Source: Candidatus Brennerbacteria bacterium (GTDB taxonomy: Bacteria > Patescibacteriota > Minisyncoccia > UBA6257 > GWB1-50-10). From it: DNA of 64,000 nucleotides. The notes beneath the pieces were generated by a model, which was not told the DNA's origin, ran no database searches, and saw only the letters and a list, made by a program, of their open reading frames with translations. This document shows positions 1,440 through 33,874 of the stretch, piece after piece (the first letter of the stretch is position 1; each line of letters begins with the position of its first letter). The stretch spans positions 327 to 64,326 of the forward strand of contig JACPEK010000003.1 in NCBI GenBank assembly GCA_016183535.1, in the 5' to 3' direction. Position numbers and translations under genes: made by a program.

Positions 1440-1459
1440 AGAGAAAGATTTGTATTCTC

Positions 1460-1774
1460 CTATTCAAAAACAGGGGGCACCTTCAAAAATCCATTCTCGG
1501 ATTCGGGAAATGCCTCACGCGCTATATCGCCCGCAAGCGGTACGCCTCCGTCATTAGCCCGAATCGCATTCGTGAGTGTAGCGCTTCCCCTCGGCCGTAA
1601 CATATCCACGGGCGAGGCGGCCATAGGAAACACACCATCGGTCTTCACCTCGTTCAACTCCGCGACGTACGCGAGTATTTTTTCGAGGTCGTCTAAAAAT
1701 TTTTTCTCCTCGCCTTTCGCGAGCCGTATCCGCGAAAGCTCCGCAAGATTTTCGAGATTTTTTTCGGACAGCAT
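1460..1774 (-). CDS. gatC: Asp/Glu-tRNA amidotransferase subunit C (GatC)
   Basis: 104-aa ORF MLSEKNLENLAELSRIRL... typical GatC size and sequence; abuts ligA stop and precedes gatA. Confidence 0.8.
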   Translation of the reverse strand: MLSEKNLENLAELSRIRLAKGEEKKFLDDLEKILAYVAELNEVKTDGVFPMAASPVDMLRPRGSATLTNAIRANDGGVPLAGDIAREAFPESENGFLKVPPVFE

Positions 1775-3874
<2,100 letters not shown>

Positions 3875-4308
3875 TCAATAAGACTTGAGGAGAAAACTCG
3901 TCTCGAGCGCACGAATGGTGCGGCGGCCGGCATCTTTTCCGTTTGCCGATATCACCGCGATACCGTTCACATCCAAAGGATCGGGAATCACGAGACGGAT
4001 ATTTTCCGCGGTCGCGCCGTTTACCAACGAAGGCGCGGGCGCGGACGCCGTGCATGGATAGCTCGCGCACCCACTGGGGGTATGCTCAAAAAAATAGTAA
4101 TAGAGCGCGCGTTCGATGCCCGCATCGGCCGCAAAAATGGCGACGGTGGAATTCGCCGCGTCGTTCGACTGCTGAAGTTGATAGTACATGAGGAGTCCCG
4201 CCACCGCGGTCACGGTAAAAAGAATCCCTCCCATCATCACGACGATCAGGATGAGCGCCTGTCCCCCGCGGGGAAATGTATGAATGCCGGTGGAAATTAA
4301 AGACCGCA
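3875..4308 (-). CDS. PilX-like minor pilin / pilus assembly protein (N-terminal hydrophobic segment)
   Basis: ORF 3875..4447; best start MRSLISTGIHTFPRGGQALILIVVMMGGILF... (ATG at 4308) resembles a PilX N-terminal domain; last gene of the pseudopilin series. Confidence 0.45.
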
Positions 4309-4923
4309 TGCTCGAATAATGCTTTCGGGCGCTTTCGGCGCCTCCCGCGGCAAGACCCGCGAGCTCACGGTGGTCTGGAGTTTTGTTTCGCGATCCGCGA
4401 GCGCCGCGTTCCGCGGGCGTACCCCCATCGCGATGGTAATGCGCCACGGATTGCAGACATCATCGTTTGACAGGCCGTTTTGATTCTTCTGCGCCACCGT
4501 GAACGAAACGTACGCGATGGAGGTATTTTCGGCGGTGAGCGCGCGCGCGCCACCGCTCCCGCCCTGCCTTGTGAGTATTCCGCGAACGGCGTCATACGCA
4601 TACACGACCTTCTCCCCATCATGATTAGTAAACGCAACCGAGGAACCGGAGGTTCCGCAGGCGTTCCCCGGATTTTGCCCCTCACAGAAGCGGTATCCAG
4701 TCCTCATCTCCCGCGCCATCTGCTCCAGCACGCCTCCCGCATTGTTGTTCACCGCCATAAGTTCCGTGAGGAGACGTTGATCCCGCACCGCGTTCACAAA
4801 CACGCCCACCGCGATCGTGACGAGTATCGCAAACACCCCCATCGCCACCACGAGCTCAATAAGCGTGAATCCCCCACGTTGGCGATTGAAAATTGAAAAT
4901 TGAAAATTGAAAATGCTTCTCAT
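4297..4923 (-). CDS. Type IV prepilin-like pseudopilin (minor pilin) with class III signal peptide
   Basis: MRSIFNFQFSIFNRQRGG|FTLIELVVAMGVFAIL has the canonical G-FTLIE prepilin cleavage motif; the leader is encoded by a 4x heptanucleotide tandem repeat. Confidence 0.65.
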   Translation of the reverse strand: MRSIFNFQFSIFNRQRGGFTLIELVVAMGVFAILVTIAVGVFVNAVRDQRLLTELMAVNNNAGGVLEQMAREMRTGYRFCEGQNPGNACGTSGSSVAFTNHDGEKVVYAYDAVRGILTRQGGSGGARALTAENTSIAYVSFTVAQKNQNGLSNDDVCNPWRITIAMGVRPRNAALADRETKLQTTVSSRVLPREAPKAPESIIRACGL

Positions 4924-4924
4924 A

Positions 4925-5419
4925 TTAGCGCCTCCAGTTGAAGAAATGATCCTCGACATCAATCAATTCCACTTCTCCGCGTTCGTCCCACTCGACCGTC
5001 GCGCCGACTCTTACTTCACGCTCCGACGGGAACGCGATTGTAACGCGTCTCTTAAAAATAGTTTCGGCGCCCCCGCCCGCGAGGGCGTATAAGCCGCTTC
5101 CTTCGTTCAGGCGGAGCCGCGCGCCAGAAGCGGGAAACAACACCGCGCCAGCCACGGATCCATAATCGACCGTGAACGACCCTTCGGTGAGAAATTCCGT
5201 CCACTGACCGCTTCCCCGCTCCGCCACATTCGTATCAATGATGTTCTTTACCACCTCAATCCCCTCCGCGGCGAGTCCCGCCGCGATCGTGCGATTCATC
5301 ACGCCGCGGTTCAAGGCGAAAGAGCGAGTGAAAAGTGCCACAACCCCCAAGAGCCCCACCACCACGAGCCCGAGCGCCACCATGGATTCGGCGAGCGAAC
5401 TCCCCTCCCGATGATTCAT
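4925..5419 (-). CDS. Prepilin-type minor pilin (PilV/GspI-like, degenerate N-terminal motif)
   Basis: MNHREGSSLAESMVALGLVVVGLLGVVALF... has a hydrophobic pilin-like N-terminus; translationally coupled to neighbours. Confidence 0.5.
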   Translation of the reverse strand: MNHREGSSLAESMVALGLVVVGLLGVVALFTRSFALNRGVMNRTIAAGLAAEGIEVVKNIIDTNVAERGSGQWTEFLTEGSFTVDYGSVAGAVLFPASGARLRLNEGSGLYALAGGGAETIFKRRVTIAFPSEREVRVGATVEWDERGEVELIDVEDHFFNWRR

Positions 5420-5439: not shown

Positions 5440-6006
5440 TCATTGTCGTGTGGTAACTTCGCCTCCCGCGCCGACCGCGACGGCGCTGGTTTTTTCGGTA
5501 CCGACAAGGCGCAGTGTTACTGTAATGCCCGGAGGATTCGTCACGAGATAGGGCGATTGGAAAAACACGTCGGGAGCCTCACTCCCCGCATCCGACACGA
5601 ACGACTCGAGCGCGACCCGATCGTTCAGCGTCACTTCTTCGATCAGCTCCCCCGCGCCGTCGTACCGCATGTTTTTCGTGGCGCAATCATCGTTTTGCGC
5701 GGGGAGATCTTCAAATAAAACGAGACGGTTTGGCTTCGTGAAGCGAACTCCGAAACCACAGGCCGCCGCGTTTCCTTTCATGATGTTCTTCTGTAGGGCG
5801 AAGGATCGCGCGCGATAGAGCACACCCGCCACCCGCGCCGTTTCCGCGGCGAGGACCACCTGGCTGTCGGTTGAACGATTATAAGAAAGCAGGAGTCCCG
5901 CAAGAAAGGCGGTGATGGCAGTTACCACAAGCACCTCAATGAGGGTAAATCCTGCGCTGTTTTTCACAAAACGGAGAAAATGGCGCCGGGCAAATCCGTC
6001 TTTCAT
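5440..6006 (-). CDS. Type IV pseudopilin (GspH/FimT-like)
   Basis: KNSAG|FTLIEVLVVTAITAFLAGLL prepilin N-terminal motif; 4-nt overlap with downstream gene. Confidence 0.65.
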   Translation of the reverse strand: MKDGFARRHFLRFVKNSAGFTLIEVLVVTAITAFLAGLLLSYNRSTDSQVVLAAETARVAGVLYRARSFALQKNIMKGNAAACGFGVRFTKPNRLVLFEDLPAQNDDCATKNMRYDGAGELIEEVTLNDRVALESFVSDAGSEAPDVFFQSPYLVTNPPGITVTLRLVGTEKTSAVAVGAGGEVTTRQ

Positions 6007-7540: not shown

Positions 7541-7957
7541 TTAGGGAGTCACGCAGTAGATGTCCGCCGATGAACAGTTCATCGAGAGCGTGCAGGTGGA
7601 TGCGGTGGCGCCTCCGTTCGGTTTGTTGGCCGCATCTTCAAGATCGGTGCCAATCGTATAGGTCTGTCCCGAAGTGCAGTATGCATACCCGGGGTTCGTC
7701 TCGGTGCCGGTCGAGGGATCGCGCGGGAGCATGCTCGGCCACGGACTCAAGACGGGATAGCCTCCCACCGCATAGTTCGCCTCGAGATAGGTTTGTATCT
7801 GGCGCAAATCCGCCACGCGTTTCGTATCACGCGCCTTCTGCCGCGCACCGCCCACGCCGATCACCACCACCGAAGAAAGGAGTCCAATGATCGCCACCAC
7901 CACGAGCATTTCGATGAGGGTGAAACCACTTTGCTTATTTTTCATAGGAATTTTCAT
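7541..7957 (-). CDS. Type IV pilin (paralog 2)
   Basis: KQSG|FTLIEMLVVVAIIGLLSSVVV; 138 aa; shares an N-terminal ~45 aa near-identity with the adjacent pilin and diverges at the C-terminus. Confidence 0.8.
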   Translation of the reverse strand: MKIPMKNKQSGFTLIEMLVVVAIIGLLSSVVVIGVGGARQKARDTKRVADLRQIQTYLEANYAVGGYPVLSPWPSMLPRDPSTGTETNPGYAYCTSGQTYTIGTDLEDAANKPNGGATASTCTLSMNCSSADIYCVTP

Positions 7958-8055
7958 TAAAATTCACGAATAGTTCTGCGACCTTTCCATGTGCGGTAAT
8001 TGTAGCATATTCGTCAGAGTGTTATTCGTGAAATTCGCATTCCCGCTCGTGCCCC

Positions 8056-9261
8056 TTAAAATGATTTCGTGAGGTTGTAAAGCGGCAGAAGAATCGCGGC
8101 GAAGAGCCCCGCCACCATGAGCCCGATTACGACAAGAAGCGCGGGCTGGATGAGCTCGACGAGATTCGATACCGTATCGTCCACCTGCCGGTTATAGAAA
8201 GATGATACGCGCTCGAGCATAGTTTCGAGACGTCCGGTGGACTCCCCCACCGCAACGAGCTGGGCGACCAAGGGAGGAAAATAAGGCGCGCCTTTCAATG
8301 CCTGCGAGAGAAGCAAGCCCTTCCTGATCGCCTGCGCCACTTCATGGAGCACGTCTTCGTAGACGTAGTTCCCGATGGTGTGCGAGGAAATTTCGATCGC
8401 CTGCGGAATAGTGAGTCCCCCCTTAATGAGCACGCGCGCGGATTCCGCGAAACGCGCGATGTACACCTTCTGGAGGAGAGAGCCAACGAGCGGAAGCCGC
8501 AGACTCACCTCGTTCATCACCACGCGTCCCTCCGCGGTCTGGAGGTAATCGATCGCGAGCGCCGCGAGAATGCCGACCGCGATCAGAATCGCCCACCACC
8601 ACTCCGAAACGAGCGTCCCCGAGAAAAGCAGAATCTTCGTGAACGTCGGGAGTTCGACATTCACTTCAGTGAAAACGGGCGCGATCTGCGGGAGCACCAT
8701 AGTGACCATAATCACCACCACCACAATAAAAAGGCCGATCACGAACGCGGGATATACCAGCGCGTTTCGAAGTTTTCCGATGAGAATGGATTGTTTCTCG
8801 AGGTAGTCCGCGAGGAAGTCCAGTACTTCCGAAAGGCGGCCCGTCACTTCGGCGGATTTCACCATATTCACGTAAAATTCATTGAAGACGCCCGGGTGAC
8901 GCGAGAGCGCCTGCGAGAGGGAGAATCCTGATTCAATGTCCGAAGCGACCTCCGCGATAACCTCCTTCAAGACCGGCTTGGTTGCTTGTTCGTAGAGCGA
9001 CCGGAGGGAGTCGCCGATCGGCACCTGCGAGGCGATGAGGGTGGCAAACTGCCGCGTGAAGATCATGAGATCCGTCCCTTTCACTCGTTCGAAAAAATCA
9101 GTGATCCGCGTCCACCACCCCTGCTCCTTCATGGGTTCGAGAGAAAGCACATAGAGCTCGTGCGAAAGCAAAATGGCGACCGCCGCATCGCGTGAGGCCG
9201 CTTCGACGTTCCCCACCTGGAGCTCACCCTGTTTCGTTCGCGCTTTATAATTAAATTTCAT
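8056..9261 (-). CDS. pilC: Type IV pilus assembly platform protein PilC (GspF family)
   Basis: 401 aa with two GspF-type repeats and three TM segments; sits between pilT and the pilins. Confidence 0.85.
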   Translation of the reverse strand: MKFNYKARTKQGELQVGNVEAASRDAAVAILLSHELYVLSLEPMKEQGWWTRITDFFERVKGTDLMIFTRQFATLIASQVPIGDSLRSLYEQATKPVLKEVIAEVASDIESGFSLSQALSRHPGVFNEFYVNMVKSAEVTGRLSEVLDFLADYLEKQSILIGKLRNALVYPAFVIGLFIVVVVIMVTMVLPQIAPVFTEVNVELPTFTKILLFSGTLVSEWWWAILIAVGILAALAIDYLQTAEGRVVMNEVSLRLPLVGSLLQKVYIARFAESARVLIKGGLTIPQAIEISSHTIGNYVYEDVLHEVAQAIRKGLLLSQALKGAPYFPPLVAQLVAVGESTGRLETMLERVSSFYNRQVDDTVSNLVELIQPALLVVIGLMVAGLFAAILLPLYNLTKSF

Positions 9262-16992: not shown

Positions 16993-19728
16993 TTACCTCG
17001 GCGTCTCTTCGAAGAACTGGCGCGAGGTGCCGACGTCGCGGCACTGATTGTTGTTCACGCACTGCGCCTCGGACGCGCGCCCGTTTTGAGCGGGTATCTT
17101 GTAGTTTTCTTTCTGCCCGCAAAAGCTGTTCTTGAGGCAGACGTTCACCTTCGCGGCTCCCTCCCGCACGGCACCCGCGGGGAGTGTTTTCCCCGCTCCT
17201 TCTTCGGCGGCATAGGGAGTACAATCGTTCGCGCTGTAGCACGCCCGCACGCGGTAGAGGTATGCCGTATCCGGCTCAAGTCCGATATCTTCCAATACGG
17301 AATTGTTGAGTTCAGAGCCTCCGCGCTGGAACTGTTTGAAATAAACCTCGAGTTTTTCTTTCTCGAGCGTCACGCCGTCCACCGGCGGATATTCGATGGC
17401 GGCGAACGCGGCGTTGAGCCACGTTTTTACGCGGCCCCACGCGCGCTCCGCAAATCCAAGAGTCGCGGCGGCGAATTCGCGCGCGCCGCCCACCGCCGTT
17501 TCGATTGTCTCACGCAGGTTCGCCGTAAATTTCCCGGCGGGTTCAAGTAACGTTCCCGTCTGCGTGAAGTACACGCGATACTCGAGCCACCCGCCTTGCT
17601 CGCCAACAAAGCCGGTGCCGGTTGTCGTGAGTCCCTCGGACGGCCGCCCCTGCGAACCCGACGAGTTGTCCCATTCTATTTTTTGAAACGCGGTGCCGGG
17701 GGACGGCGTACCGCCGACATAGGAAAATGTGAATCGCTGATCCGACCCTGTCGGATAGTCGGCGAGTTTAGTGAAAGGCACCGCCGTAACACCCGAAACG
17801 ACCGTAGTCCGTCCGGAATCAAGGAGCGAGAAATCAATGTTGCCGGAAGTTTCGACTCCGTTTACAAACGCCTTCACGCGCAGGGTTTCGTTCACAACCG
17901 AGGTCGGCGTGAAGAGCGCGCTCACGTCCGCGTTCGCGGTAAGCGTCCAGGCGCAAGTCGCGCTCGTCGAATTGTTGCACGGCCCGCTCGTCCACCGCGT
18001 GAAAGCGTATCCCGCGGCGGGTGTTGCGGTGAGCGTAACGGGAGTGGCGTATTCGAAGGAGCACGTCCGGCCGCTCGAACAATCTCCGCTTATTGTGCCG
18101 CCCGTGGGCGAAGCCACCGCCACTTCCGGATCCGTGGTCGCGTTCCCCGTTGCGGCGGCTTTCGAGGTGGTGCGTCCCCACGGTCCGTCGCGAAAACTCC
18201 GAACTGAAACCGCATACTCGGTACCCGCCTGAAGACCGGTGACGCTGAACGTAGAAACGAACGAGTACCCTTGGGTATTCGACGCCGCGCCATTCTTCGG
18301 CGCCTCGCAGGCGCCCGTGGCGCAGTTCCCCGCGCCCGGCGCGGGCGCGACCGTCACCGCGAAACCGTCTTCGCGCCGCGAGTAATCCCTCCACTGAATC
18401 GAGAGTTTATTGTTGTCCACCGTCACAAATCGCATATCGGACGGCGCGGCGGGCAGGGTCGAGGTACCAACATAGCCGATGTCGCCATATTTCCCGCACG
18501 CCTCGGCGGGTATGTCGTTCTGCCCCGCGGTCGGCGCTGCGCGCGTGTAGTCCGCCCTAATGAGCGAGCATCCGCGCGCGCGGTAATAGTAATCGGTGCC
18601 TTCGCGGAGGCCGTCATCAATTTTTTCGTACGAGGTTTTCGTCTTCGCCCAATCCGCGTCGTCCGCAAACGCGAAGGGACGCAGAGTAAACGACGGGTCG
18701 CACAGCGTGGTATTCACATATTTGCATTCCTGGCTGTTGTCCTTGCGATCGGCGAAGGGGTTGCTCGAGGTGCTCCGCTCGAACGCGTGGTAGTAGGGAC
18801 CCTTCAGTTGCTTTCGCGCCCCGTTCGCGTCCGCGTTCGTGAAGTTTTTCCATGAGAGTTTGATCTCGGTGTCACTCACGGTAACGACACCCGCCACATC
18901 GGTGGAGGGGAAGACGGGTTTCTCCGGCGTGAGCTTGATGCGCTGGAGCTCGAAAGTGTGGGGCTTCACCGCGTTATCCTTCCAGTTCACAAGGAGCGAG
19001 GAGGGCGAGAGCGCCCATGCGTAGAGCTTCGACGGCGTGTCGGGAGAAGTGGCGAGCGTTTTACAAGATACGTTGGGTGTACTCGTTGAAACATTCCCCA
19101 CCGTCCACGCAAGGAAATAGATATGCTCCTCGCCTTTTTCAAAATCGCCGCCGTCTTCGTACGAGCCACTGCCGGTCGGGAGAGGCGGCGGGGGCGCGAT
19201 CTTTTTATTGTCGCGGAAAAGTGTGAGCGTGTGCGGTTTCGTCACGTTCCCGTTCCAGTTGACGGTGAGTTTTGACTCGGTCGAAATACCGCACTTGAGA
19301 TAGTATTCCTCCGCAACGGCCGGCCCACCCTTCTCCGTTTTCACGATCACGATATTCGAATCCTCGGACATAATAGATACGTCGAGATTGCCCGTCTGTG
19401 TCTCCCCCGCCTTCGCAGTCTGGAGCTGGTACTTGTAAACGCCACTCTCGAACGGCTGGCCGCCGTTCGTGTCGAGGAATGATTTGTCGCCGGCAGTGCG
19501 GTCAAGATTTGGATTTAGAACCCTAGGCTCCGTTCCTGGTCCGCTGACTTTCCTTAACGTCTGCTGGCTATAGCCCTCGACATTCTGCCACTTCAGTTCG
19601 ATAACATTCTGATCCGGCTTGTAGCCACCGCTGAAATCTTTGGGCCAATTCGTCGCCGCGAACCCGCTCGCGGGAAAGATAAGGGAGAGAATCGCAAGGG
19701 CAGAGAACAAGGAGCTGACGCGTTTCAT
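16993..19728 (-). CDS. Large secreted surface protein with FN3-like repeats and a divergent InlB B-repeat module
   Basis: 911 aa; signal peptide MKRVSSLFSALAILSLIFPASGFA; repeated LSWKN/LSIQWRD FN3 signatures; segment ATPVTLTATPAAGYAFTRWTSGPC...CAWTLTANADVSALF matches the InlB-B-repeat pattern. Confidence 0.75.
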   Translation of the reverse strand: MKRVSSLFSALAILSLIFPASGFAATNWPKDFSGGYKPDQNVIELKWQNVEGYSQQTLRKVSGPGTEPRVLNPNLDRTAGDKSFLDTNGGQPFESGVYKYQLQTAKAGETQTGNLDVSIMSEDSNIVIVKTEKGGPAVAEEYYLKCGISTESKLTVNWNGNVTKPHTLTLFRDNKKIAPPPPLPTGSGSYEDGGDFEKGEEHIYFLAWTVGNVSTSTPNVSCKTLATSPDTPSKLYAWALSPSSLLVNWKDNAVKPHTFELQRIKLTPEKPVFPSTDVAGVVTVSDTEIKLSWKNFTNADANGARKQLKGPYYHAFERSTSSNPFADRKDNSQECKYVNTTLCDPSFTLRPFAFADDADWAKTKTSYEKIDDGLREGTDYYYRARGCSLIRADYTRAAPTAGQNDIPAEACGKYGDIGYVGTSTLPAAPSDMRFVTVDNNKLSIQWRDYSRREDGFAVTVAPAPGAGNCATGACEAPKNGAASNTQGYSFVSTFSVTGLQAGTEYAVSVRSFRDGPWGRTTSKAAATGNATTDPEVAVASPTGGTISGDCSSGRTCSFEYATPVTLTATPAAGYAFTRWTSGPCNNSTSATCAWTLTANADVSALFTPTSVVNETLRVKAFVNGVETSGNIDFSLLDSGRTTVVSGVTAVPFTKLADYPTGSDQRFTFSYVGGTPSPGTAFQKIEWDNSSGSQGRPSEGLTTTGTGFVGEQGGWLEYRVYFTQTGTLLEPAGKFTANLRETIETAVGGAREFAAATLGFAERAWGRVKTWLNAAFAAIEYPPVDGVTLEKEKLEVYFKQFQRGGSELNNSVLEDIGLEPDTAYLYRVRACYSANDCTPYAAEEGAGKTLPAGAVREGAAKVNVCLKNSFCGQKENYKIPAQNGRASEAQCVNNNQCRDVGTSRQFFEETPR

Positions 19729-19865: not shown

Positions 19866-21164
19866 ATGAAACGGATATGGATGTATCTAGCAATGGCGTT
19901 GGTCATTGCGACTGCGTCCATTCCGAATGCGGGATGGGCGCAGGCGGTGTCGGCGGACATCACCATCAGTCGAAACCTTCTGCCGGACAGTTTAAGAAAT
20001 TATATTTATTCTCTCTGGGTAGACGGGAACGGTGATATTTTCACGACGATGCCATGGAAGGCGTTGCTCCGTTCGACGGATGACGGGGTGACGTGGAAGC
20101 AGATCTTCAAGAGAGATTTTCTCTCTAATTTCGGGTTTGCGGTCATGCGCGATCAGAAAACCAATGCACTCCTCTTTGGAAACGGGGGGGGGTTGTACCG
20201 GTCAAGCGACGATGGCGCAAGCTGGACCTTTGTATGGGAAAAGGGAGCGGGATGTTTCCTTGTGAAGCCAGACGGCTCTATTCTCGCCGGCACCGGTAAA
20301 CATATCGGCCATTCCGAAGATGGAGGCGTGTCGTGGAAAACGGTACTCTACCGCGACGACCACTATTTCAACGTGGAAGCGCTCGCGATGAGTCCAAAGA
20401 CGGGTTCTCTCTTTGCGGGCACCGCGGACACTATCGGTTTGGGCGTGCTCCGCTCAACTGATGATGGCACAACGTGGCACCAGTCGAACAGCGGTCTTGG
20501 GGATCTTCATGTGTGGGCGCTCGCCACGGACAATAACGGAACCATTTACGCGGGGGTCGAGAGAAAAGGTCTTTACCGTTCCACTGACGATGGAGTCACG
20601 TGGGAGAAAGTACCAGGATTCAACGCTTCACCGAGAAACGCCATCGCAATTCTCGTGCTGAAGCCCGATCTTATCTGCGTCGGTTTTGGCTGGAAGGGTG
20701 GCGGCGATCCCGTGGGAAAGGGTGGCGGCTTCAAATATGACGGCAAGGCGTGGACGCAATTTATTGCGGACTCCATAGATGTAACCTCGTTCGCAGTGAA
20801 GGGCAAATCGCTCCTTGTCGGCTCGTTAGACGCTATCTACCGCGTGGACGGGGCGATCGATACGCCGGTGTCCGTGGAAGAGGAACCTGATGTAATCCCC
20901 TCCTCGTTCGTTCTGCATCAGAACTTCCCCAATCCCTTCAATCCGAGTACCACGATAACCTTCTCGCTTCCCGATCGAAGCCATGTACGCCTCGCGGTGT
21001 GGAACGTGATCGGCGAGGAAGTCGCAACGTTGGTCGAGGAAGAACGGTCGGCTGGGATCCATCGGATTGTTTGGAACGCCAAGGGTCTCCCGAGCGGTAT
21101 TTATCTATACCGGATGCAAACAGAAACATCAGTACAGGCAAAGCGGATGATGCTGCTGAAATGA
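19866..21164 (+). CDS. Secreted BNR/Asp-box repeat beta-propeller protein with T9SS-type C-terminal sorting domain
   Basis: Signal peptide; about six S-x-D-x-G-x-T-W Asp-box repeats (STDDGVTW, SSDDGASW, HSEDGGVSW...); C-terminal 80 aa NFPNPFNPSTTITFSLPDRSHVRLAVWN...GLPSGIYLYRM...KRMMLLK matches Por_Secre_tail. Confidence 0.85.
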   Translation: MKRIWMYLAMALVIATASIPNAGWAQAVSADITISRNLLPDSLRNYIYSLWVDGNGDIFTTMPWKALLRSTDDGVTWKQIFKRDFLSNFGFAVMRDQKTNALLFGNGGGLYRSSDDGASWTFVWEKGAGCFLVKPDGSILAGTGKHIGHSEDGGVSWKTVLYRDDHYFNVEALAMSPKTGSLFAGTADTIGLGVLRSTDDGTTWHQSNSGLGDLHVWALATDNNGTIYAGVERKGLYRSTDDGVTWEKVPGFNASPRNAIAILVLKPDLICVGFGWKGGGDPVGKGGGFKYDGKAWTQFIADSIDVTSFAVKGKSLLVGSLDAIYRVDGAIDTPVSVEEEPDVIPSSFVLHQNFPNPFNPSTTITFSLPDRSHVRLAVWNVIGEEVATLVEEERSAGIHRIVWNAKGLPSGIYLYRMQTETSVQAKRMMLLK

Positions 21165-21182
21165 TATTCAAAGGGCTTGATA

Positions 21183-25861: not shown

Positions 25862-26134
25862 ATGCTACTTACTCAACATGAATATTCGCAGAACTACCCG
25901 AACCCGTTCAATCCAACGACGACCATCGCCTTCTCGCTTCCCGACCGAAGCCATGTACGCCTCGCGGTGTACAATGCGCTCGGCGAGGAAGTCGCGGCCT
26001 TGGTGGACGAGGAAATCGCGGCCGGCACCCACAAGACCACGTGGGACGCCTCCGGACTCCCGAGCGGCATCTACTTTGTGCGAATGAATGCTCACACATT
26101 CACCGCCACGAAGAAGATGGTGTTACTGAAGTAG
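25862..26134 (+). pseudogene. Orphan T9SS C-terminal sorting domain fragment (5'-truncated cargo gene)
   Basis: 90-aa ORF is essentially only NYPNPFNPTTTIAFSLPDRSHVRLAVYN...GLPSGIYFVRM...KKMVLLK; high-GC, abutting a low-GC gene with a junction near 25885. Confidence 0.7.
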
Positions 26135-26916: not shown

Positions 26917-26978
26917 AAATAAAAATAGGGCTAAGGTAAGTATAAAACTTTTCCTTAGCCCCGCGAAGTCGTCACCCT

Positions 26979-27080
26979 CTAGTGGCAGTTGCTGGGGCTT
27001 TGACAGGTGCAGAACACCTTTAGCTTCGGCAGTGCCTTGACTTTGAGGATCGGCTGCTGTTTGAGCTTCGTCTTCTGCAT
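26979..27080 (-). CDS. Putative RiPP precursor peptide (33 aa, Lys-rich leader, C-terminal C-x-C-x6-C)
   Basis: GGAAAGGAGG RBS, then ATG 5 nt after the rSAM stop codon; MQKTKLKQQPILKVKALPKLKVFCTCQSPSNCH; same strand and immediately downstream of the rSAM/SPASM enzyme. Confidence 0.55.
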   Translation of the reverse strand: MQKTKLKQQPILKVKALPKLKVFCTCQSPSNCH

Positions 27081-27085
27081 AGCAT

Positions 27086-28525
27086 TCACCTCCTTTCCGT
27101 TGCAGGTTGGAGAAGTTCCGGCCCTGACGCCGTCGCTTCCCGCAGTTGTTCTCGAAGAATCTCGTGGGTCATACGGCGGTAGAAGTCGCACATTCGTTCG
27201 ATCTTGACGGTTTTCGTCGCCCGAGCGAACTCTTGCGTAATGTTGCAACCACCACCGCACTGCCCTTCGATCATGCACCCTTTACACATTTCCATTACTC
27301 CGGTGAGATGATCTCTCACAAAGCGATGATAGGCGGTGCCTGACGCATGAAACGACTGGATTTCCGAGAGACTCCCGAGTTGGGTCGTGCTGTAGCCACA
27401 TCCGTAGATGTTTCCGGACGGGCCTACGCACATGCTGTTGCCGCGGACTGCGCCGCAGAACGCGACACGGCTTTCGAGCGTTGATCCGTTAAGATTCTCG
27501 GCTGGCCGTGACCAGAAGCCGGGAACATCAACGCCTCGTGCCGCCGCGTAGCGCCGAATCCGCATCAGCTTTGCGACGACATCTTCAATCGGAATTTCCA
27601 CCATATCGACAACGTCGATATCAATCCTGACGTTCTTCATGCCGCGGGTTACTGCCCAGTCGACAATCGACTCGTCAAGTTCGTGAAAATTCTTTTCGGT
27701 GACTGTCACCGCGATGCCATCGAGTGGATACCCCGCTTGCGCCAACGCATCGAATCCACGCATTATTTGGGAGAATGTACCGCCCCCAGACTTCGTCAAG
27801 CGGACGTGATCATTTCCCTCGCGCAAGCCGTCGAGACTAGAAGCAATCTCGACGCGATGTTCTTTGAGAATCGCGGCGATATCTGGCGTAATGAGTGACG
27901 CGTTCGTGTTGATCGAGAAGTGAAACTCGAATTCCGAACCATAGGCGATACGGCAGTATTCAAACATCTGCTTGATGACTGGCCACGCCAACAGCGGTTC
28001 GCCTCCACCAAAGTTGATCTCGGCGACACGCTTTCCATGACCGCGAAGAATCTCGAGATACCGATCCACCGTTTCCTTGGCTGTGTCATACCGCATAAAC
28101 TTTTTGGGGTTGTTGATGCGGTCAGAAGTTTCCAAGTTGTTAAAGTGGATGCAATAGGTGCAACGGAAGTTGCACGCCTCACTCATGATGAGCTCGAGAT
28201 AATCAATCAGCGAACCGCTGATAATTTCCTTTTCCCCTTCTCGCATCCGCTCTTCGAGAAATGCTCGGTCATCGAAACCCTCTGGAACAAGGAAATGACA
28301 CTGCAAAAATTCCTCAATTGCTTCCCGATTTTCGTCGGTCAACTCATTGCCGACCTGTGAACGAACCGTTATCGGCTCGGAGAACGACTCAAGAAATTCG
28401 AGCGTCTCAACGGGAACAACTCTTGGGTATCCAAACAGTGAGTGCCAAATCACCGCAGAGTCGCCATCTAGAACGGCCTGCACGAACGGCGACTTCGTGT
28501 AAGCGACATTAAGGTTAAGTGCCAT
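27086..28525 (-). CDS. Radical SAM / SPASM-domain peptide-modifying enzyme
   Basis: CNFRCTYC (CxxxCxxC) radical-SAM cluster motif near residue 125; Cys-rich SPASM region CGAVRGNSMCVGPSGNIYGCGYS...CKGCMIEGQCGGGCN; about 100-aa N-terminal extension that could be an RRE-like domain. Confidence 0.8.
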   Translation of the reverse strand: MALNLNVAYTKSPFVQAVLDGDSAVIWHSLFGYPRVVPVETLEFLESFSEPITVRSQVGNELTDENREAIEEFLQCHFLVPEGFDDRAFLEERMREGEKEIISGSLIDYLELIMSEACNFRCTYCIHFNNLETSDRINNPKKFMRYDTAKETVDRYLEILRGHGKRVAEINFGGGEPLLAWPVIKQMFEYCRIAYGSEFEFHFSINTNASLITPDIAAILKEHRVEIASSLDGLREGNDHVRLTKSGGGTFSQIMRGFDALAQAGYPLDGIAVTVTEKNFHELDESIVDWAVTRGMKNVRIDIDVVDMVEIPIEDVVAKLMRIRRYAAARGVDVPGFWSRPAENLNGSTLESRVAFCGAVRGNSMCVGPSGNIYGCGYSTTQLGSLSEIQSFHASGTAYHRFVRDHLTGVMEMCKGCMIEGQCGGGCNITQEFARATKTVKIERMCDFYRRMTHEILREQLREATASGPELLQPATERR

Positions 28526-28648
28526 TGCAGGCTCCTTTCTTTGTTTTTTAAACGATTCAACAGATTTCTTTGTTATCTACAGAATGACAATTATTATAAT
28601 ACTTGTCAAATCGCATAATGTTTCTCCATTATCAAGATATCTTTACGG

Positions 28649-28727
28649 CATCTACTTCTATCGCTTGGAGACCGATTCGCCAGCTGGCGGATTCACGGCC
28701 GTAAAGAAGATGATCCTACTAAAGTAG
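28649..28727 (+). pseudogene. Remnant of a T9SS CTD 3' end (..GIYFYRLETDSPAGGFTAVKKMILLK*)
   Basis: In-frame match to the last about 25 aa of CTD copies, with an extra SPAGG coded by the palindrome CGCCAGCTGGCG; followed by terminator copy 2. Confidence 0.6.
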
Positions 28728-28737
28728 CTTTATTAAA

Positions 28738-28776
28738 GGGCTTGATACAAATGTATCAAGCCCTTTTGCGTTTTGT
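28738..28776 (+). terminator. Rho-independent terminator, repeat copy 2
   Basis: gggcttgatacaaatgtatcaagccc plus TTTTGCGTTTTG; near-identical to copies 1 and 3. Confidence 0.8.
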
Positions 28777-28801: not shown

Positions 28802-28993
28802 ATGGCCACCGCAACTTTTCTCCAAAAGCTGAATACGGAATTGAAACGCATCGTTGCGCACGCGGTGCTTGATACCCTTACTGACCCCGATCTCGGCGCA
28901 GAACTCACCCTGCATGCCAAGCGACGTCTGCGCGCGGCCGCTCGCGGACGAAGCGTTGCCACGCTCGCGGAGATAAAAAAGAAACATTACTGA
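28802..28993 (+). CDS. Putative type II antitoxin (addiction-module component, TIGR02574-like) paired with the RelE/ParE toxin
   Basis: 63 aa; stop overlaps the toxin start (ATGA); position and size typical of an antitoxin. Confidence 0.5.
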   Translation: MATATFLQKLNTELKRIVAHAVLDTLTDPDLGAELTLHAKRRLRAAARGRSVATLAEIKKKHY

Positions 28994-29265
28994 TGGGCAG
29001 ATGGTCGCTCGGGTTCACGCGGAGTGCTGAGGAGGACCTCGCGCAATTGGATCGGCCGGTCCGTCGCCGCATTATCGACAAACTCGAATGGCTATCGGCA
29101 CACTTCGATGGAATTATCCCCTCGGCGCTACATGCGGAGTTCCGCGAGTTCTACAAACTTCGGGTGGGCGACTGGCGTGTCGTTTATAAAATCGAGTGGC
29201 GCAAATACTCCATCATGATTTGCTACATTGACCGCCGCGACCGGGTATACAAAAAAGGAAGGTAG
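28993..29265 (+). CDS. RelE/ParE family type II toxin
   Basis: 90 aa; YKLRVGDWRVVYKIE...IMICYIDRRDRVY matches the RelE/ParE core. Confidence 0.7.
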   Translation: MGRWSLGFTRSAEEDLAQLDRPVRRRIIDKLEWLSAHFDGIIPSALHAEFREFYKLRVGDWRVVYKIEWRKYSIMICYIDRRDRVYKKGR

Positions 29266-29267
29266 TT

Positions 29268-29597
29268 ATAGACACCGCTCTCAAACGGCTTGCCACCGTT
29301 CGTGTCGAGGAGGGTGACTTCTCGCCGCTTCCTACCCACTACTCACTGGGACAAAACTACCCGAACCCATTCAATCCCACGACCACGATCACCTTCTCAC
29401 TTCCCGACCGAAGCCACGTACGCCTCACGGTGTACAATGCGATTGGTCAGGAAGTCGTGAAGTTGGTTGACGAGGAGGTCTCCGCAGGCACCCACAAAAC
29501 AACGTGGGACGCCTCCGGCCTCCCGAGCGGCATCTATTTCTATCGTTTGGAAACGAAGCAATTCATCCAAACGAGGAAGACTATGTTCATGAAGTAG
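29268..29597 (+). pseudogene. 5'-truncated T9SS cargo gene fragment (linker plus complete CTD)
   Basis: Reading frame open from 29268 with no start codon; ..HYSLGQNYPNPFNPTTTITFSLPDRSHVRLTVYNAIGQEVVKLVDEEVSAGTHKTTWDASGLPSGIYFYRLETKQFIQTRKTMFMK*; followed by a hairpin terminator at 29611-29645. Confidence 0.65.
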
Positions 29598-31593: not shown

Positions 31594-31833
31594 TCATCTA
31601 TAAGTTTTCTCCGATCGCCTCTCCACCGCGAGAACAAATATTTTTTTATCGTCCAAAAGTCGGAAAATAACCCGAAGGTCTCCCGACCTCACGCGAAACA
31701 AGTCCTGCCGGCCCTTGAGCTTCTTTATGTCCAACCAAATAATTTTCCCCTCTTTCAGAGAGTTTAAAATCGTTGCTATTTTCTTTCTTTCTTTTTCCGA
31801 AAGCTTTTCAAGCTGTTTGGAAACGCGATCCAT
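31594..31833 (-). CDS. RelE/ParE family type II toxin
   Basis: 79 aa; LFRVRSGDLRVIFRLLDDKKIFVLAVERRSEKTYR RelE-fold core; 4 nt downstream of the antitoxin. Confidence 0.7.
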   Translation of the reverse strand: MDRVSKQLEKLSEKERKKIATILNSLKEGKIIWLDIKKLKGRQDLFRVRSGDLRVIFRLLDDKKIFVLAVERRSEKTYR

Positions 31834-31836
31834 ACC

Positions 31837-32049
31837 CTAAAGGCGGGAAAGTAAATCGTTTATATTCACTCCCCCTTTGCTTATTTTGGTGAAATCAATA
31901 ACCTCCTCCCAATGGTCGTCTTCGACTTGAGAAACGCGGAAGATCGGCTTGGAGCGACGCATCACCACAATGGGGATGCCTCTCCGCGCCGCCCGCGCGT
32001 ATTTTTCCAGATTCATCCTGAATTCCTTTAGACCAATGACGCTTTCCAT
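31837..32049 (-). CDS. Phd/YefM family type II antitoxin
   Basis: 70 aa; IGLKEFRMNLEKYARAARRGIPIVVMRRSKPIF matches the Phd/YefM N-terminal fold. Confidence 0.7.
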   Translation of the reverse strand: MESVIGLKEFRMNLEKYARAARRGIPIVVMRRSKPIFRVSQVEDDHWEEVIDFTKISKGGVNINDLLSRL

Positions 32050-32085: not shown

Positions 32086-32268
32086 GCAATATTCGAATCC
32101 TCGGACATAATAGATACGTCGAGGTCGGCTGTCTGCGTCTCCCCCGCCTTCGCAGTCTGGAGCTCATATTTATAGACACCACTCTCGAACGGCCGGCCGC
32201 CGTTCGTGTCGAAAAAAAATTTGTCACCGGCAGTGCGGTCAAGATTTGGATTTAAAACACCCCCCTAT
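32086..32268. repeat. About 180-bp relic copy (about 90% identical) of an internal segment of the large FN3 surface-protein gene (matches 19349-19533)
   Basis: Direct sequence comparison: aatcctcggacataatagatacgtcgag...cagtgcggtcaagatttggattta shared by both loci; the copy has no intact ORF context. Confidence 0.75.
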
Positions 32269-32283
32269 CCGAACCCACACAAA

Positions 32284-33303
32284 CTACCGGGCCGCGAGAG
32301 CGCGGACAACATGACGGAGGAGCATTGCCGCATACCCATACTCGTTGTCGTACCACGAGAGTATCTTCACTAAATCACCGTCCACCACTTTGGTGAACGA
32401 GAGATCCACAATCGCGCCGTAGGGTTCGCCGACGATATCGGACGACACGAGCTGTTCTTCCGACACCCCAAGAATTCCTTTCCACCGCGGCAACTTGGCG
32501 GCGCGCCGGAAAATGCTGTTTACCTCTTCCACGGAGGTTTTCCGTGTCGCGAGAAACGTGATATCGGCGAGGGAACCAGACACGACCGGTACCCGCATCG
32601 CGATACCGTCGAATTTCCCGGCAAGCGGCGGAAACGCGCGGGTCACCGCGATCGCCGCACCGGTCGTCGAGGGCGTGATATTCGCCGCCGCCGCCCGCCC
32701 GCGACGAAAATCTTTTCCTTTCACGGGGCCATCCACTAAATTCTGGGTGGCGGTGTAGCCATGAACCGTGTTCAGAACGGCTTTCCTGATGCCTGGCTTT
32801 TCCGCCATCACGGCAATGACCGGCGCGGCGGCGTTCGTGGTGCACGAACCGTTCGAAGTTAAAATCACTTTCTTCAACTCGCCCTCGTTCACCCCTACCA
32901 AAACCGTTTTCCCCTCGACGCCATCCTCGTCTTTCGCCGGCGCGGTAATAACCACGCGCTTCGCGCCTGCCGCGAGATGTTCTTTTGCTTTCTCGTACGA
33001 TTCAAAAACACCCGTCGCTTCCACCACGAGATCCACTTTCATTTTCTTCCATGGTAATTTCGCCGGATCTTTTTCCTGCAACAATTTGATCCGTTTCCCG
33101 GCGACCACAAGCACCCCTTGATTCGCTTTGACCTCGCGCGTATAACGGCCATAGACCGTGTCGTACCGCAAGAGGTAGGAAAGGTTCGCGGCGTCGCCGA
33201 GATCGTTGATCGCCACGATCTCAAACTCCTTCGCACCAAATCCGAGGCGAAAGAACAATCTCCCTATCCTCCCAAAACCGTTGATGGCGATCTTTTTCTT
33301 CAT
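32284..33303 (-). CDS. gap: Glyceraldehyde-3-phosphate dehydrogenase, type I
   Basis: INGFGRIGR NAD-binding motif and catalytic SNGSCTTN; start taken at MKKKIAINGFGRIGR (ATG at 33303), with a possibly spurious upstream extension to 33372. Confidence 0.9.
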   Translation of the reverse strand: MKKKIAINGFGRIGRLFFRLGFGAKEFEIVAINDLGDAANLSYLLRYDTVYGRYTREVKANQGVLVVAGKRIKLLQEKDPAKLPWKKMKVDLVVEATGVFESYEKAKEHLAAGAKRVVITAPAKDEDGVEGKTVLVGVNEGELKKVILTSNGSCTTNAAAPVIAVMAEKPGIRKAVLNTVHGYTATQNLVDGPVKGKDFRRGRAAAANITPSTTGAAIAVTRAFPPLAGKFDGIAMRVPVVSGSLADITFLATRKTSVEEVNSIFRRAAKLPRWKGILGVSEEQLVSSDIVGEPYGAIVDLSFTKVVDGDLVKILSWYDNEYGYAAMLLRHVVRALAAR

Positions 33304-33316
33304 ATCCTCTATTATA

Positions 33317-33874
33317 TTACCTTCCGCCGCGATATTGCGCACCCCACTCGTGAACCGTTTCCGAAATCTCATCGAAAGAAAGCAGGCGCGCGCCGCCGGC
33401 GATAAGCCGCCGCACCTTCACCACATCTCCCGCCTTGGCGCGGAGAAGCCTCGCGCGCCCCGCCGCAAGTTCGAGCACCTTGTCCACCGGCGCCGGCGGC
33501 ACATAATTTTTCAGATCGTGCTCGGACACGCCCGGTTCCGGCGGCACTCGTTCTTCCACCCCGACAATCTCGTTTCCGGAAATCCAGACGATATCAATCG
33601 GAAATGAAACTCCTTTCATCCAAAATGGATATCGCGCGGCTTCGTCGAAGAGAAAGAGCATCCCCTCGTTCACGCCCAGCCCGGCGCGGCCCGCAAGCCC
33701 TTTGGCGCGCGTGTCCGCGTCGCGCACGATATCCACCACGATAATCTGCTCATTGATCTTCACCTCGCCCTTGTTTTCAAGCGAGAAGAGTGATGAAAAA
33801 TAGGGCGCGCCGACGAGCGCGATGCCGAGTGCCATCCCAAAGAGCACCATGAAAAATTTTATGAGGGCCGACAT
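33317..33874 (-). CDS. DUF192 domain protein (COG1430-like) with N-terminal TM
   Basis: 185 aa; ..FPIDIVWISGNEIVGVE.. pattern consistent with DUF192. Confidence 0.5.
   Translation of the reverse strand: MSALIKFFMVLFGMALGIALVGAPYFSSLFSLENKGEVKINEQIIVVDIVRDADTRAKGLAGRAGLGVNEGMLFLFDEAARYPFWMKGVSFPIDIVWISGNEIVGVEERVPPEPGVSEHDLKNYVPPAPVDKVLELAAGRARLLRAKAGDVVKVRRLIAGGARLLSFDEISETVHEWGAQYRGGR

Follow-up and report, generated by a model that had tools for sequence, protein, structure and literature searches.

The stretch of DNA analyzed here, referred to as the window, comprises 64,000 nucleotides (nt) of contig JACPEK010000003.1 from an assembly labelled Candidatus Brennerbacteria bacterium (GCA_016183535.1), and carries on its minus strand a gene for a putative radical S-adenosylmethionine (SAM)/SPASM peptide maturase, a gene for a 33-residue peptide directly behind it, and a gene for a nucleotidyltransferase (NTase). 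Together they probably constitute a three-gene module, self-contained and horizontally mobile, for a new family of peptides made on ribosomes and modified after translation (RiPPs), in this case by a radical-SAM enzyme; the product of the module would be toxic and the third gene would provide immunity. This reading is built on the domain architecture of the enzyme, the joint conservation of the three genes, the coding signature that the peptide gene shows, the terminator behind the peptide gene, and the pattern of gene loss, each of which is observed directly in the loci compared. Systems of this kind, consisting of a radical-SAM/SPASM enzyme for a RiPP, a cognate precursor, and self-protection, are already known; the family is new. 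The original prediction, made from the sequence of the window alone, had designated the enzyme and the peptide a candidate undescribed RiPP locus, and this designation stands, in that the enzyme reaches no curated family cutoff, the peptide genes are essentially unannotated in public data, and text searches of the non-paywalled literature retrieved no description of this family.

Conservation and coding signature of the peptide gene

The enzyme gene in the window ends in GAA AGG AGG TGA and is separated by 5 nt (ATGCT) from the ATG of the gene encoding the 33-aa peptide MQKTKLKQQPILKVKALPKLKVFCTCQSPSNCH. This layout, including the 479-aa length of the enzyme and the ribosome-binding site within its last codons, had been described correctly, coordinates included. 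For comparison, 31 genome loci and 80 metagenome loci were collected around homologues of the enzyme, which form at least 387 clusters at 66-91% identity; its relatives form a continuum (277 representatives at E < 1e-30) that extends down to approximately 30% identity. The peptide gene directly follows the enzyme gene in 28 of the 31 genome loci, the exceptions being two truncated loci and locus L024, in which the peptide gene lies in convergent orientation after the next gene. Almost all metagenome loci with sequence past the enzyme gene contain the peptide gene as well, even at 40-43% enzyme identity, and the adjacency of the two genes was found in approximately 100 independent loci with enzyme identities down to 40%. 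The conservation of the small open reading frame (ORF) in related loci, which had been named as a point to check, is strong, and a short precursor that is conserved together with its enzyme, changes in gene order included, is what is generally expected of a RiPP locus.

When anchored at their C-termini, the peptides, which range from 24 to 40 residues, align without gaps. Positions -2 (Cys) and -3 (Asn) never vary, Thr takes the place of S(-4) in one locus and Tyr that of C(-8) in one locus, and hardly any variation is seen at T(-9), P(-5), K(-13), P(-16), and L(-17); the family core consensus, located at the C-terminus, is T-C-[QRK]-x-P-S-N-C-x. Members of a distant clade end in ...PSNCRH, ...PSNCHKS, or ...PSNCSKS. 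Position -10 is occupied by Cys, Asn, Met, Ala, or Lys, and of the basic leader with three clustered Cys residues that had been read from the window, the basic leader is retained, whereas only two of the Cys residues (-8 and -2) are conserved.

The peptide genes occur in 72-77 distinct DNA versions, in which the codons of invariant residues vary synonymously: TGT (40) and TGC (31) are both used for the Cys at -8, all four Pro codons are used at -5, and the three stop codons all occur. On this comparison of sequences, synonymous variation of this kind at invariant residues shows that selection acts on the protein. The Shine-Dalgarno sequence AGAAAGGAGGTGA is conserved across loci, and a hairpin followed by a T-run is present 3' of the peptide gene in nearly all of them. 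An exact look-up of ten of the peptide sequences in a collection of 15 billion proteins retrieved only one, which is unnamed, and the peptide matches no Pfam or NCBIfam profile.

A small hairpin was also noted around the stop codon (window positions 26970-26990), where the last two peptide codons (TGC CAC) pair with GTGGCA just past the stop. Stop-spanning hairpins with a stem of at least 5 bp were found in 39% of the loci, compared to 9% of shuffled controls, with apparent compensatory pairs (GGC/GCC and CGC/GCG); the hairpin is weak in the window copy.

Domain architecture and relatives of the enzyme

The sole Pfam match of the enzyme is Radical_SAM (PF04055; 76.6 bits against a cutoff of 29.5, E = 3e-21), and the Cys residues of the CX3CX2C motif (C118, C122, and C125) are invariant across 39 homologues, which places the protein in the radical SAM superfamily. 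The C-terminal 156 aa match the SPASM model TIGR04085 with 31.7 bits (cutoff 27), which places it in the SPASM subfamily, and eight C-terminal Cys residues are invariant in the 39 homologues, in the arrangement C366-x9-C376 with G371, C414-x2-C417-x5-C423-x3-C427, C446, and C357. From this Cys pattern, two auxiliary 4Fe-4S clusters are predicted. Both the CxxxCxxC motif and the Cys-rich C-terminal SPASM region, which includes CX2CX5CX3C, had been recognized at the outset.

A scan of NCBIfam yielded 61 weak matches for the enzyme, none of which reached its curated cutoff. Peptide maturases rank first (PapB, QhpD, and nif11-type), followed by anaerobic sulfatase-maturating enzymes (anSME), HxsB, CcpM, and SCIFF, and the mycofactocin and PQQ families are also among the matches. 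The top match is PapB (NF047865; 141.8 bits against a cutoff of 340, E = 3e-41), and the QhpD profile (106.8 bits, cutoff 453, E = 1e-30) and the SCIFF maturase model TIGR03974 (87.1 bits, cutoff 425) score lower. Among solved structures, the closest by sequence (phmmer) is TigE (8vpo; E = 1e-31, residues 20-458 aligned), followed by CteB (5wgg; E = 6e-19) and anSME, and a Foldseek search of the PDB with an AlphaFold model of the enzyme, based on 39 homologues, retrieved TigE (2e-23), CteB (2e-9), anSME, ChlB, and SuiB. The overall confidence of this model is moderate (predicted local distance difference test score, pLDDT, 67.6), and its cluster-binding loops are poorly defined, as is expected since the cofactors are absent from it.

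Residues 1-98 were modelled at a pLDDT of 80-93 as strand-strand-strand(-strand)-helix-helix-helix, and from residue 20 onward the enzyme aligns (phmmer) with the N-terminal region of TigE, which is a RiPP recognition element (RRE; PMC10878394). The N-terminal 109 aa matched no Pfam or NCBIfam profile. As modelled, the N-terminal domain appears RRE-like, RREs being PqqD-like winged helix-turn-helix folds of three strands and three helices that bind the leader, and the architecture of the enzyme, with an RRE-like domain, a radical-SAM core, and SPASM, is typical of RiPP maturases, outside every curated family. A grouping with non-peptide enzymes, which had been considered as an outcome, was not observed for the enzyme; its best matches are the RRE-carrying maturases PapB, QhpD, nif11-type, CcpM, TigE, and CteB.

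Several specific assignments were considered and dropped. TigE is a methyl-cyclopropylglycine synthase of a family defined by a GYW motif, the Tyr of which ligates auxiliary cluster I and is essential (PMC10878394). The enzyme described here has GFW335-338 where TigE has GYW, and GFW is invariant in its family; with GFW in place of GYW, and with a peptide that lacks the Val/Ile repeat, assignment as a cyclopropylglycine synthase of the TigE/TvgB type fails. An assignment as anSME was rejected on the basis of its score (TIGR03942; 101.4 bits, cutoff 349), the presence of the RRE-like domain, the lack of a linked sulfatase, and a peptide without CxPxR, the motif that anSME recognizes on a sulfatase being C/S-x-P/A-x-R; anSME also ranks below RRE-bearing RiPP maturases and itself lacks the N-terminal domain. 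Membership of the PapB family of ranthipeptide maturases was discarded given the score below cutoff and a core without Asp/Glu and without C-X3-D/E repeats, and membership of the SCIFF/ranthipeptide family (TIGR03974) given the score under cutoff and the presence of only two invariant Cys residues. The earlier classification of the pair as sactipeptide- or ranthipeptide-type was only a guess, as the enzyme falls outside PapB, SCIFF, and the other families against which it was compared; in sactipeptides the Cys sulfur is bonded to the alpha-carbon of an acceptor residue, in ranthipeptides to its beta- or gamma-carbon. A search for known defence systems with PADLOC gave just generic matches to viperin (through the radical-SAM core) and to minimal NTases, and the module was accordingly not assigned to any known defence system.

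Three interchangeable gene families in the third position

Neighbouring ORFs of the loci were compared by all-against-all clustering, which revealed no conserved neighbour gene upstream of the enzyme. Directly 3' of the peptide gene, two alternative families were found, encoding either a 239-aa NTase or an acetyltransferase of the GNAT family of approximately 160 aa, the latter sometimes preceded by a SAM methyltransferase. Among the loci with more than 700 nt of sequence past the enzyme, an NTase and/or GNAT is present on the same strand in 81 of 87 (35 with NTase only, 37 with GNAT only, and 9 with combinations including GNAT and/or SAM methyltransferase). Beyond these, two loci contain a major facilitator superfamily (MFS) pump, with a convergent 394-aa transporter filling the slot after the peptide gene in L061 and L074, and one is permuted; the gene order peptide, NTase, enzyme was found in L078/L079. 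NTase and GNAT partners span the whole identity range, and one is exchanged for the other even between enzymes as close as 85-90% identity; the sequence of the peptide shows no covariation with the partner that follows it. In several loci the C-terminal half of an NTase gene lies behind a GNAT gene, in some of them together with the methyltransferase gene, which records the replacement of NTase by GNAT. Judged from the gene families, three classical resistance-type mechanisms are represented in this slot, namely O-nucleotidylation, N-acetylation, and efflux.

The NTase of the window has the Pfam matches Polbeta/NTP_transf_2 and belongs to a family of 220 clusters. Its AlphaFold model (pLDDT 91.9) is most similar in Foldseek to ANT(4')/KNTase, with a template-modelling (TM) score of 0.63-0.67 over both domains, followed by LinB, ANT(6), and HalB; in NCBIfam it scores below the equivalog cutoffs of ANT_4p_I (18.2 against 350) and Lnu(H) (24.4 against 540). 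The best PDB relatives of the GNAT proteins are AAC(6') and polyamine acetyltransferases, and their public labels are RimJ/RimL or AAC(6'); RimI/RimJ are likewise among the proteins that they match. The NTase or GNAT gene follows the terminator hairpin without a Shine-Dalgarno sequence of its own. The window gene for the NTase has a GC content of approximately 36%, compared to approximately 53% for the radical-SAM gene. A similar composition gap was noted within the unit at large, the enzyme and peptide genes having approximately 50-53% GC (approximately 0.6 at third codon positions) in most copies, the third gene 27-37%, and the hosts 30-47%.

Asymmetric loss of enzyme and third gene

Homologues of the third gene were looked up on long contigs (n = 9). 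Three of these (P0339, P0389, and P0484) are located within an intact module, and the other six are orphans beside relics of the module. In L114, the peptide gene and an intact GNAT gene are kept and the enzyme gene is deleted; in L116 and L123, the terminator hairpin alone remains before the GNAT gene; L121 retains fragments of the enzyme gene; L125 has the last 12 peptide codons before an intact NTase gene; and L129 has a degenerate peptide relic beside an orphan NTase gene. The orphan NTases keep every invariant catalytic residue. Truncations of the enzyme were counted in clear cases only (L016, L030, L031, L084, L101/L102, and L121/L122), and in L084 the enzyme is cut at residue 247 with a GNAT gene 65 nt further on. 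In these comparisons, loci that have the enzyme but no third gene are almost absent and the third gene often stands alone, which corresponds to the loss pattern of a producer gene and its immunity gene.

The deletion junction in L114 (approximately positions 4880-4925) consists of an inverted-repeat core (..GCGGACAAAAAATGGAGG) fused to the last codons of the enzyme gene (GGAGGTGA), which suggests recombination of the similar stretches AAATGGAGG and AAAGGAGG.

Horizontal transfer and genomic setting of the module

Copies of the module with 76-90% nucleotide identity, restricted to the module itself, are present in bins assigned to different phylum-level lineages, namely Magasanikbacteria, Ryanbacteria, Portnoybacteria, Saccharibacteria, Peregrinibacteria, Azambacteria, and Uhrbacteria, and copies with identities down to approximately 68% in bins labelled Omnitrophica, Anaerolineales, Gammaproteobacteria, and Pseudonocardiaceae. 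The flanks are unrelated in every copy compared, and nucleotide identity tracks amino-acid identity, synonymous sites being unsaturated. Collectively, these comparisons indicate that the module spreads horizontally, mostly among candidate phyla radiation (CPR; Patescibacteria) bacteria. A close-pattern search for the enzyme on viral contigs revealed no relatives and, therefore, no sign of a phage-borne module.

The module lies between inverted repeats in L001 (210 nt, 97%; arms at 5721-5930 and 8358-8567), L035 (418 nt; 1-418 and 2840-3257), L041 (114 nt), L044 (109 nt), and L005 (35 nt). Within a locus the two arms match at 97-100%; all have a GC-rich hairpin core in common (GGGCAAAAAATTTCCTCCCC..CCATTTTTTGCCCGCTCGCC), and in three cases they run to the contig ends. 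Such repeats could be the ends of a mobile cassette or could flank a segment that is able to invert. An apparent inverted repeat in L073 consists of two similar terminators and was discounted, and the window copy has no bracketing inverted repeats. A tRNA gene lies within approximately 500 nt of the module in approximately 13 of 58 loci, with differing tRNA identities. These tRNA-near loci include L001, L003/L033, L005, L011, L021/L055, L023, L028, L056, L063, L119, and L125, and the proximity was roughly estimated to be several-fold above chance; in L001 the right arm of the inverted repeat borders directly on a tRNA-like gene with a group I intron.

At approximately 40-90 nt upstream of the enzyme start, a 5' leader was noted as conserved in L002, L003, L006, L007, and L018. 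It comprises a promoter-like TTGCAT-N17-TATAAT, a hairpin (GAAACTCAYRGTGAGTTTC, with a compensatory variant in L006), and a box (AGTACATTCACAAC) before the ribosome-binding site, and it matched no known RNA family in Rfam; of these elements, only the ribosome-binding site is left in the window copy.

In the window, the module lies inside an island of mosaic GC content (30-57%; approximately 21.2-32.3 kb). The island is bordered by an intact BNR gene with a type IX secretion system (T9SS) sorting domain (19866-21164) and by a glyceraldehyde-3-phosphate dehydrogenase gene (32284-33372), and it is segmented by diverged direct copies (67-87%) of the last 252 nt of the BNR gene, at 20919, 25889, 29352, and 31284. 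A hairpin (AAAGGGCTTGATACAnnnGTATCAAGCCCTTT) recurs at 21168, 28733, and 31535, and a further repeat at 19352-19521, 32089-32258, and 29261-29311. This arrangement resembles the outcome of repeated insertion into a single hotspot, and no integrase was seen between 21200 and 32300. Two toxin-antitoxin-like pairs were noted in the island, one consisting of a small antitoxin-like ORF and a ParE-family toxin (28802-29265, the toxin at 28993-29265; Pfam ParE_toxin), and the other of a RelE/ParE-like ORF and an upstream Phd-like ORF (31594-32049; 31594-31833 and 31837-32049, both on the minus strand); other low-GC cargo is present besides these pairs. The flanks had been described as relics of T9SS sorting domains and a low-GC NTase gene. 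The relics were indeed found on both sides, with sorting-domain sequence at 25862-26134 and 28584-28727; the low-GC gene is there as well, although it is not a flank but the third part of the unit. The view of the locus as acquired cargo was likewise right, but the cargo is a three-gene unit. The coordinates of the module and its boundaries are collected in Table 1.

Table 1. Features of the three-gene module and its boundaries, in window positions
Feature	Position	Strand	Basis
Putative radical-SAM/SPASM peptide maturase, 479 aa	27086-28525	minus	ORF read
RRE-like N-terminal domain, residues 1-98	28232-28525	minus	AlphaFold topology and phmmer alignment to TigE
CX3CX2C radical-SAM cluster motif (C118/C122/C125)	28151-28174	minus	sequence
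SPASM region (C357, C366, C376, C414, C417, C423, C427, C446)	27188-27457	minus	TIGR04085 and Cys conservation
Shine-Dalgarno GGAAAGGAGG of the peptide gene	27089-27098	minus	inside last enzyme codons
Precursor peptide gene, 33 aa, basic leader with L-P-K-[LR]-K-V-L	26979-27080	minus	conservation, synonymous variation
Predicted core T-C-Q-S-P-S-N-C-H	26982-27008	minus	gap-free C-terminal alignment
Intrinsic terminator hairpin GGGGCUAAGG...CCUUAGCCC with U-run, in the peptide/NTase interval	26927-26962	minus	fold
Third gene, two-domain NTase with ANT(4')/KNTase-like fold, 239 aa	26197-26916	minus	Pfam, AlphaFold, Foldseek
Remnant of the conserved 5' leader of the module with ribosome-binding site, AAAGAAAGGAGCCTGCA	28526-28545	minus	upstream-region alignment
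Insertion boundary outside the module: relic of a T9SS sorting-domain 3'-end with hairpin	28584-28772	plus	repeat families D1, D4, D5
Other boundary outside the module: relic of a T9SS sorting-domain coding segment	25862-26140	plus	sequence, repeat comparison

The contig is labelled Candidatus Brennerbacteria at NCBI. Its backbone nevertheless has 52-62% GC, and several of the proteins encoded on it end in T9SS C-terminal sorting domains. Either the bin may have been misassigned, or the host may not be a typical CPR bacterium. A Por_Secre_tail gene is also present in L129, which contains an orphan NTase gene. Further RiPP-like loci were noted elsewhere: the Azambacteria contig of L112 contains more radical-SAM/SPASM genes beside Cys-rich small ORFs (...STCSACQVACYSDPCQADPTCDFD and ...GGCPSCCTCLCPST) at 1299-2645 and 7640-9230, and L024 contains an ATP-grasp and SPASM locus with a small ORF of its own at 1091-4870; L112 and L024 represent clusters of RiPP-like modules in CPR genomes.

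Proposed mechanism

In the mechanism proposed, the RRE-like domain would bind the basic leader of the precursor (motif L-P-K-[LR]-K-V-L), after which the radical-SAM core and the two auxiliary SPASM clusters would abstract hydrogen from the core T-C-x-x-P-S-N-C-x. One or two intramolecular cross-links would be formed, with carbons of the invariant Thr, Ser, or Asn as acceptors. Thioethers from the two invariant Cys residues appear to be the most likely chemistry, since the nearest profile families (PapB, QhpD, and SCIFF) form thioethers, although by analogy of this sort the guess is about as apt to miss as to hit. The modified peptide would be toxic inside cells, and the third gene would protect the producer, as well as any cell that keeps the third gene alone, through O-nucleotidylation (ANT(4')-fold) or acetylation (AAC(6')/RimJ-like GNAT) of the peptide, or in a few loci through MFS efflux. 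The terminator behind the peptide gene would allow high expression of the peptide gene and low expression of the immunity gene. The window would hold a complete copy of the module, inserted as cargo in a mosaic island of a T9SS-bearing host.

Several observations weigh against parts of this proposal. The orphan third genes form a small sample (six of nine look-ups) that is biased to long contigs, and given this sample the chances that the third gene serves the self-protection of the producer are evenly balanced. The likeness of the third gene to resistance enzymes is at the level of fold or superfamily only, with NCBIfam scores far under the cutoffs. The absence of an adjacent exporter or protease, as originally noted for the window, holds across approximately 90 loci, in none of which a protease or dedicated exporter is conserved, though an MFS transporter fills the third position in two of them. 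TigE, the solved structure most closely related to the enzyme, produces cyclopropylglycine rather than thioethers, and both the type of cross-link and the residue modified are guesses. Finally, the window copy has lost the usual upstream leader, the homology ending approximately 20 nt before the ATG (blastn), and a pattern scan of the window found no promoter-like site on the module strand upstream of the enzyme gene.

The strongest competitor, which would also count against an immunity function, is that the third gene encodes a tailoring enzyme that acetylates (GNAT) or adenylylates (NTase) the peptide during maturation, in one variant activating Ser/Thr hydroxyls for elimination and Cys addition. 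The tight linkage of the third gene on the same strand agrees with this, as do the common occurrence of GNAT and methyltransferase tailoring genes in RiPP clusters, the SAM methyltransferase inserted in some loci, and the position of the NTase gene between peptide and enzyme in L078. However, a tailoring enzyme would be of no use outside its pathway, and yet GNAT and NTase genes are retained intact as orphans next to enzyme and peptide genes that have decayed; acetyl and nucleotidyl groups would lead to different products, and yet the partners are swapped among near-identical pairs with the peptide unchanged; and an MFS pump is able to fill the slot. It is the asymmetric loss, together with the free exchange of three resistance mechanisms and the lack of covariation between peptide and partner, that favours self-protection over maturation, and a tailoring role is considered unlikely.

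A purely intracellular addiction unit, in which the modified peptide acts as a poison in its own cell that the NTase or GNAT must continuously neutralize and no antibiotic is secreted, fits most of the data. The lack of a conserved exporter or protease is in line with it, and so are the mobility of the module, its position in the window among ParE/RelE-type toxin-antitoxin pairs, and the orphan antidotes, which would serve as anti-addiction genes. A 1.4-kb Fe-S enzyme would be costly for an addiction toxin alone, and the MFS pump that replaces the antidote in two loci suggests that export is possible. As a separate explanation it is quite improbable, but it is compatible with a toxic peptide and its immunity gene and is kept as a variant of that reading.

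It is very improbable that the peptide gives rise, like mycofactocin or PQQ precursors, to an intracellular cofactor or to a metal-binding or redox peptide rather than a toxin: the very short, almost invariant, C-terminus-anchored core, the lack of an exporter, the ability of SPASM enzymes to make such cofactors, and the weak NCBIfam matches to mycofactocin and PQQ families would suit it, but the distribution is patchy and transfer-driven, the enzyme decays often, no protease or cofactor-using enzyme is linked, and resistance-type and orphan partners would make no sense. Scarcely credible, finally, is a regulatory leader peptide that controls the NTase or GNAT gene by hairpin attenuation, the radical-SAM gene being a mere neighbour, since the resemblance to erm/cat attenuators of a short ORF and a hairpin terminator before a resistance-like gene without its own Shine-Dalgarno sequence, the excess of stop-codon hairpins over shuffled controls, and the peptide and GNAT genes without enzyme in L114 are outweighed by a peptide that tracks the enzyme and not the third gene, with translational coupling to the enzyme through a spacing of 5 nt and a Shine-Dalgarno sequence within the coding region of the enzyme, that is convergent to the NTase gene in L024, separated from the GNAT gene by a methyltransferase gene in several loci, absent from three of the six orphan loci, and present where an opposite-strand MFS gene follows, and by the predicted peptide-recognition domain of the enzyme.

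Comparison with known systems

Among systems with a Cys-containing peptide substrate, PapB/freyrasin and QhpD have a radical-SAM core and SPASM with two auxiliary clusters like the module, whereas the module peptide has no C-X3-D/E repeats and has two Cys residues, with Thr, Ser, and Asn rather than Asp/Glu as possible acceptors, and the partner genes differ. CteB/SCIFF (thermocellin) has the same order of RRE, radical-SAM, and SPASM and a Cys-bearing precursor C-terminus; SCIFF precursors, however, contain six Cys residues in approximately 45 residues, compared to two invariant ones in 24-40 residues, and in the module the precursor gene is downstream of the enzyme gene. TigE/TvgB comes closest of the solved relatives when the full length of the enzyme is compared, RRE included, and differs in the GYW motif, for which the module has an invariant GFW, and in the repeated Val/Ile motif that the module peptide lacks. 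Predicted graspetide RiPP loci with SPASM enzymes are known from CPR bacteria (Makarova et al. 2022, PMC8939145), and a graspetide-type ATP-grasp and SPASM locus adjoins the module in L024; the enzyme clade and the precursor are different, and the module has no ATP-grasp ligase.

With respect to self-protection, the closest parallel is microcin C, the compact ribosomal-peptide operons of which contain interchangeable immunity enzymes acting on an intracellular toxin (the GNAT MccE2, MccF, MccG, and MccH), have an MFS exporter as an alternative or addition, and have standalone homologues that protect non-producers (PMC9239234). The maturase of the module is radical-SAM/SPASM and not ThiF-like as MccB, its core is not a C-terminal Asn, and immunity is inferred for the module. 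The third genes share their folds with ANT(4')/KNTase, LinB, and AAC(6') at 10-14% identity, and their substrate is likely a peptide rather than an aminoglycoside or lincosamide.

Implications

A more far-reaching view, which is offered tentatively and is doubtful as it stands, is that CPR bacteria and a few other lineages trade a compact antibiotic cassette, the product being a highly cationic peptide, cross-linked by a radical-SAM enzyme, that acts intracellularly, possibly on the translation machinery, and is neutralized by ANT(4')- or AAC(6')-fold enzymes or by MFS efflux. If so, ribosomal peptides would be natural substrates of the folds of ANT(4') and AAC(6'), which in the clinic confer aminoglycoside and lincosamide resistance, and peptide warfare with "cheater" orphan immunity genes would take place among the smallest known bacteria.

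CPR/Patescibacteria are usually described as almost devoid of secondary metabolism. If the interpretation of the module as a toxic RiPP with its immunity gene is correct, a large RiPP family has been missed by annotation, with hundreds of clusters for the enzyme and for each partner and with peptides that are almost never called, and new radical-SAM chemistry would take place on a core of eight or nine residues. Enzymes with ANT(4') and AAC(6') folds may have a natural role as peptide-immunity proteins. The family is concentrated in CPR/Patescibacteria and provides a clonable three-gene system for asking how ultra-small episymbionts compete, and the pattern of producers and orphan immunity genes makes the ecological hypothesis testable in existing groundwater metagenomes and metatranscriptomes.

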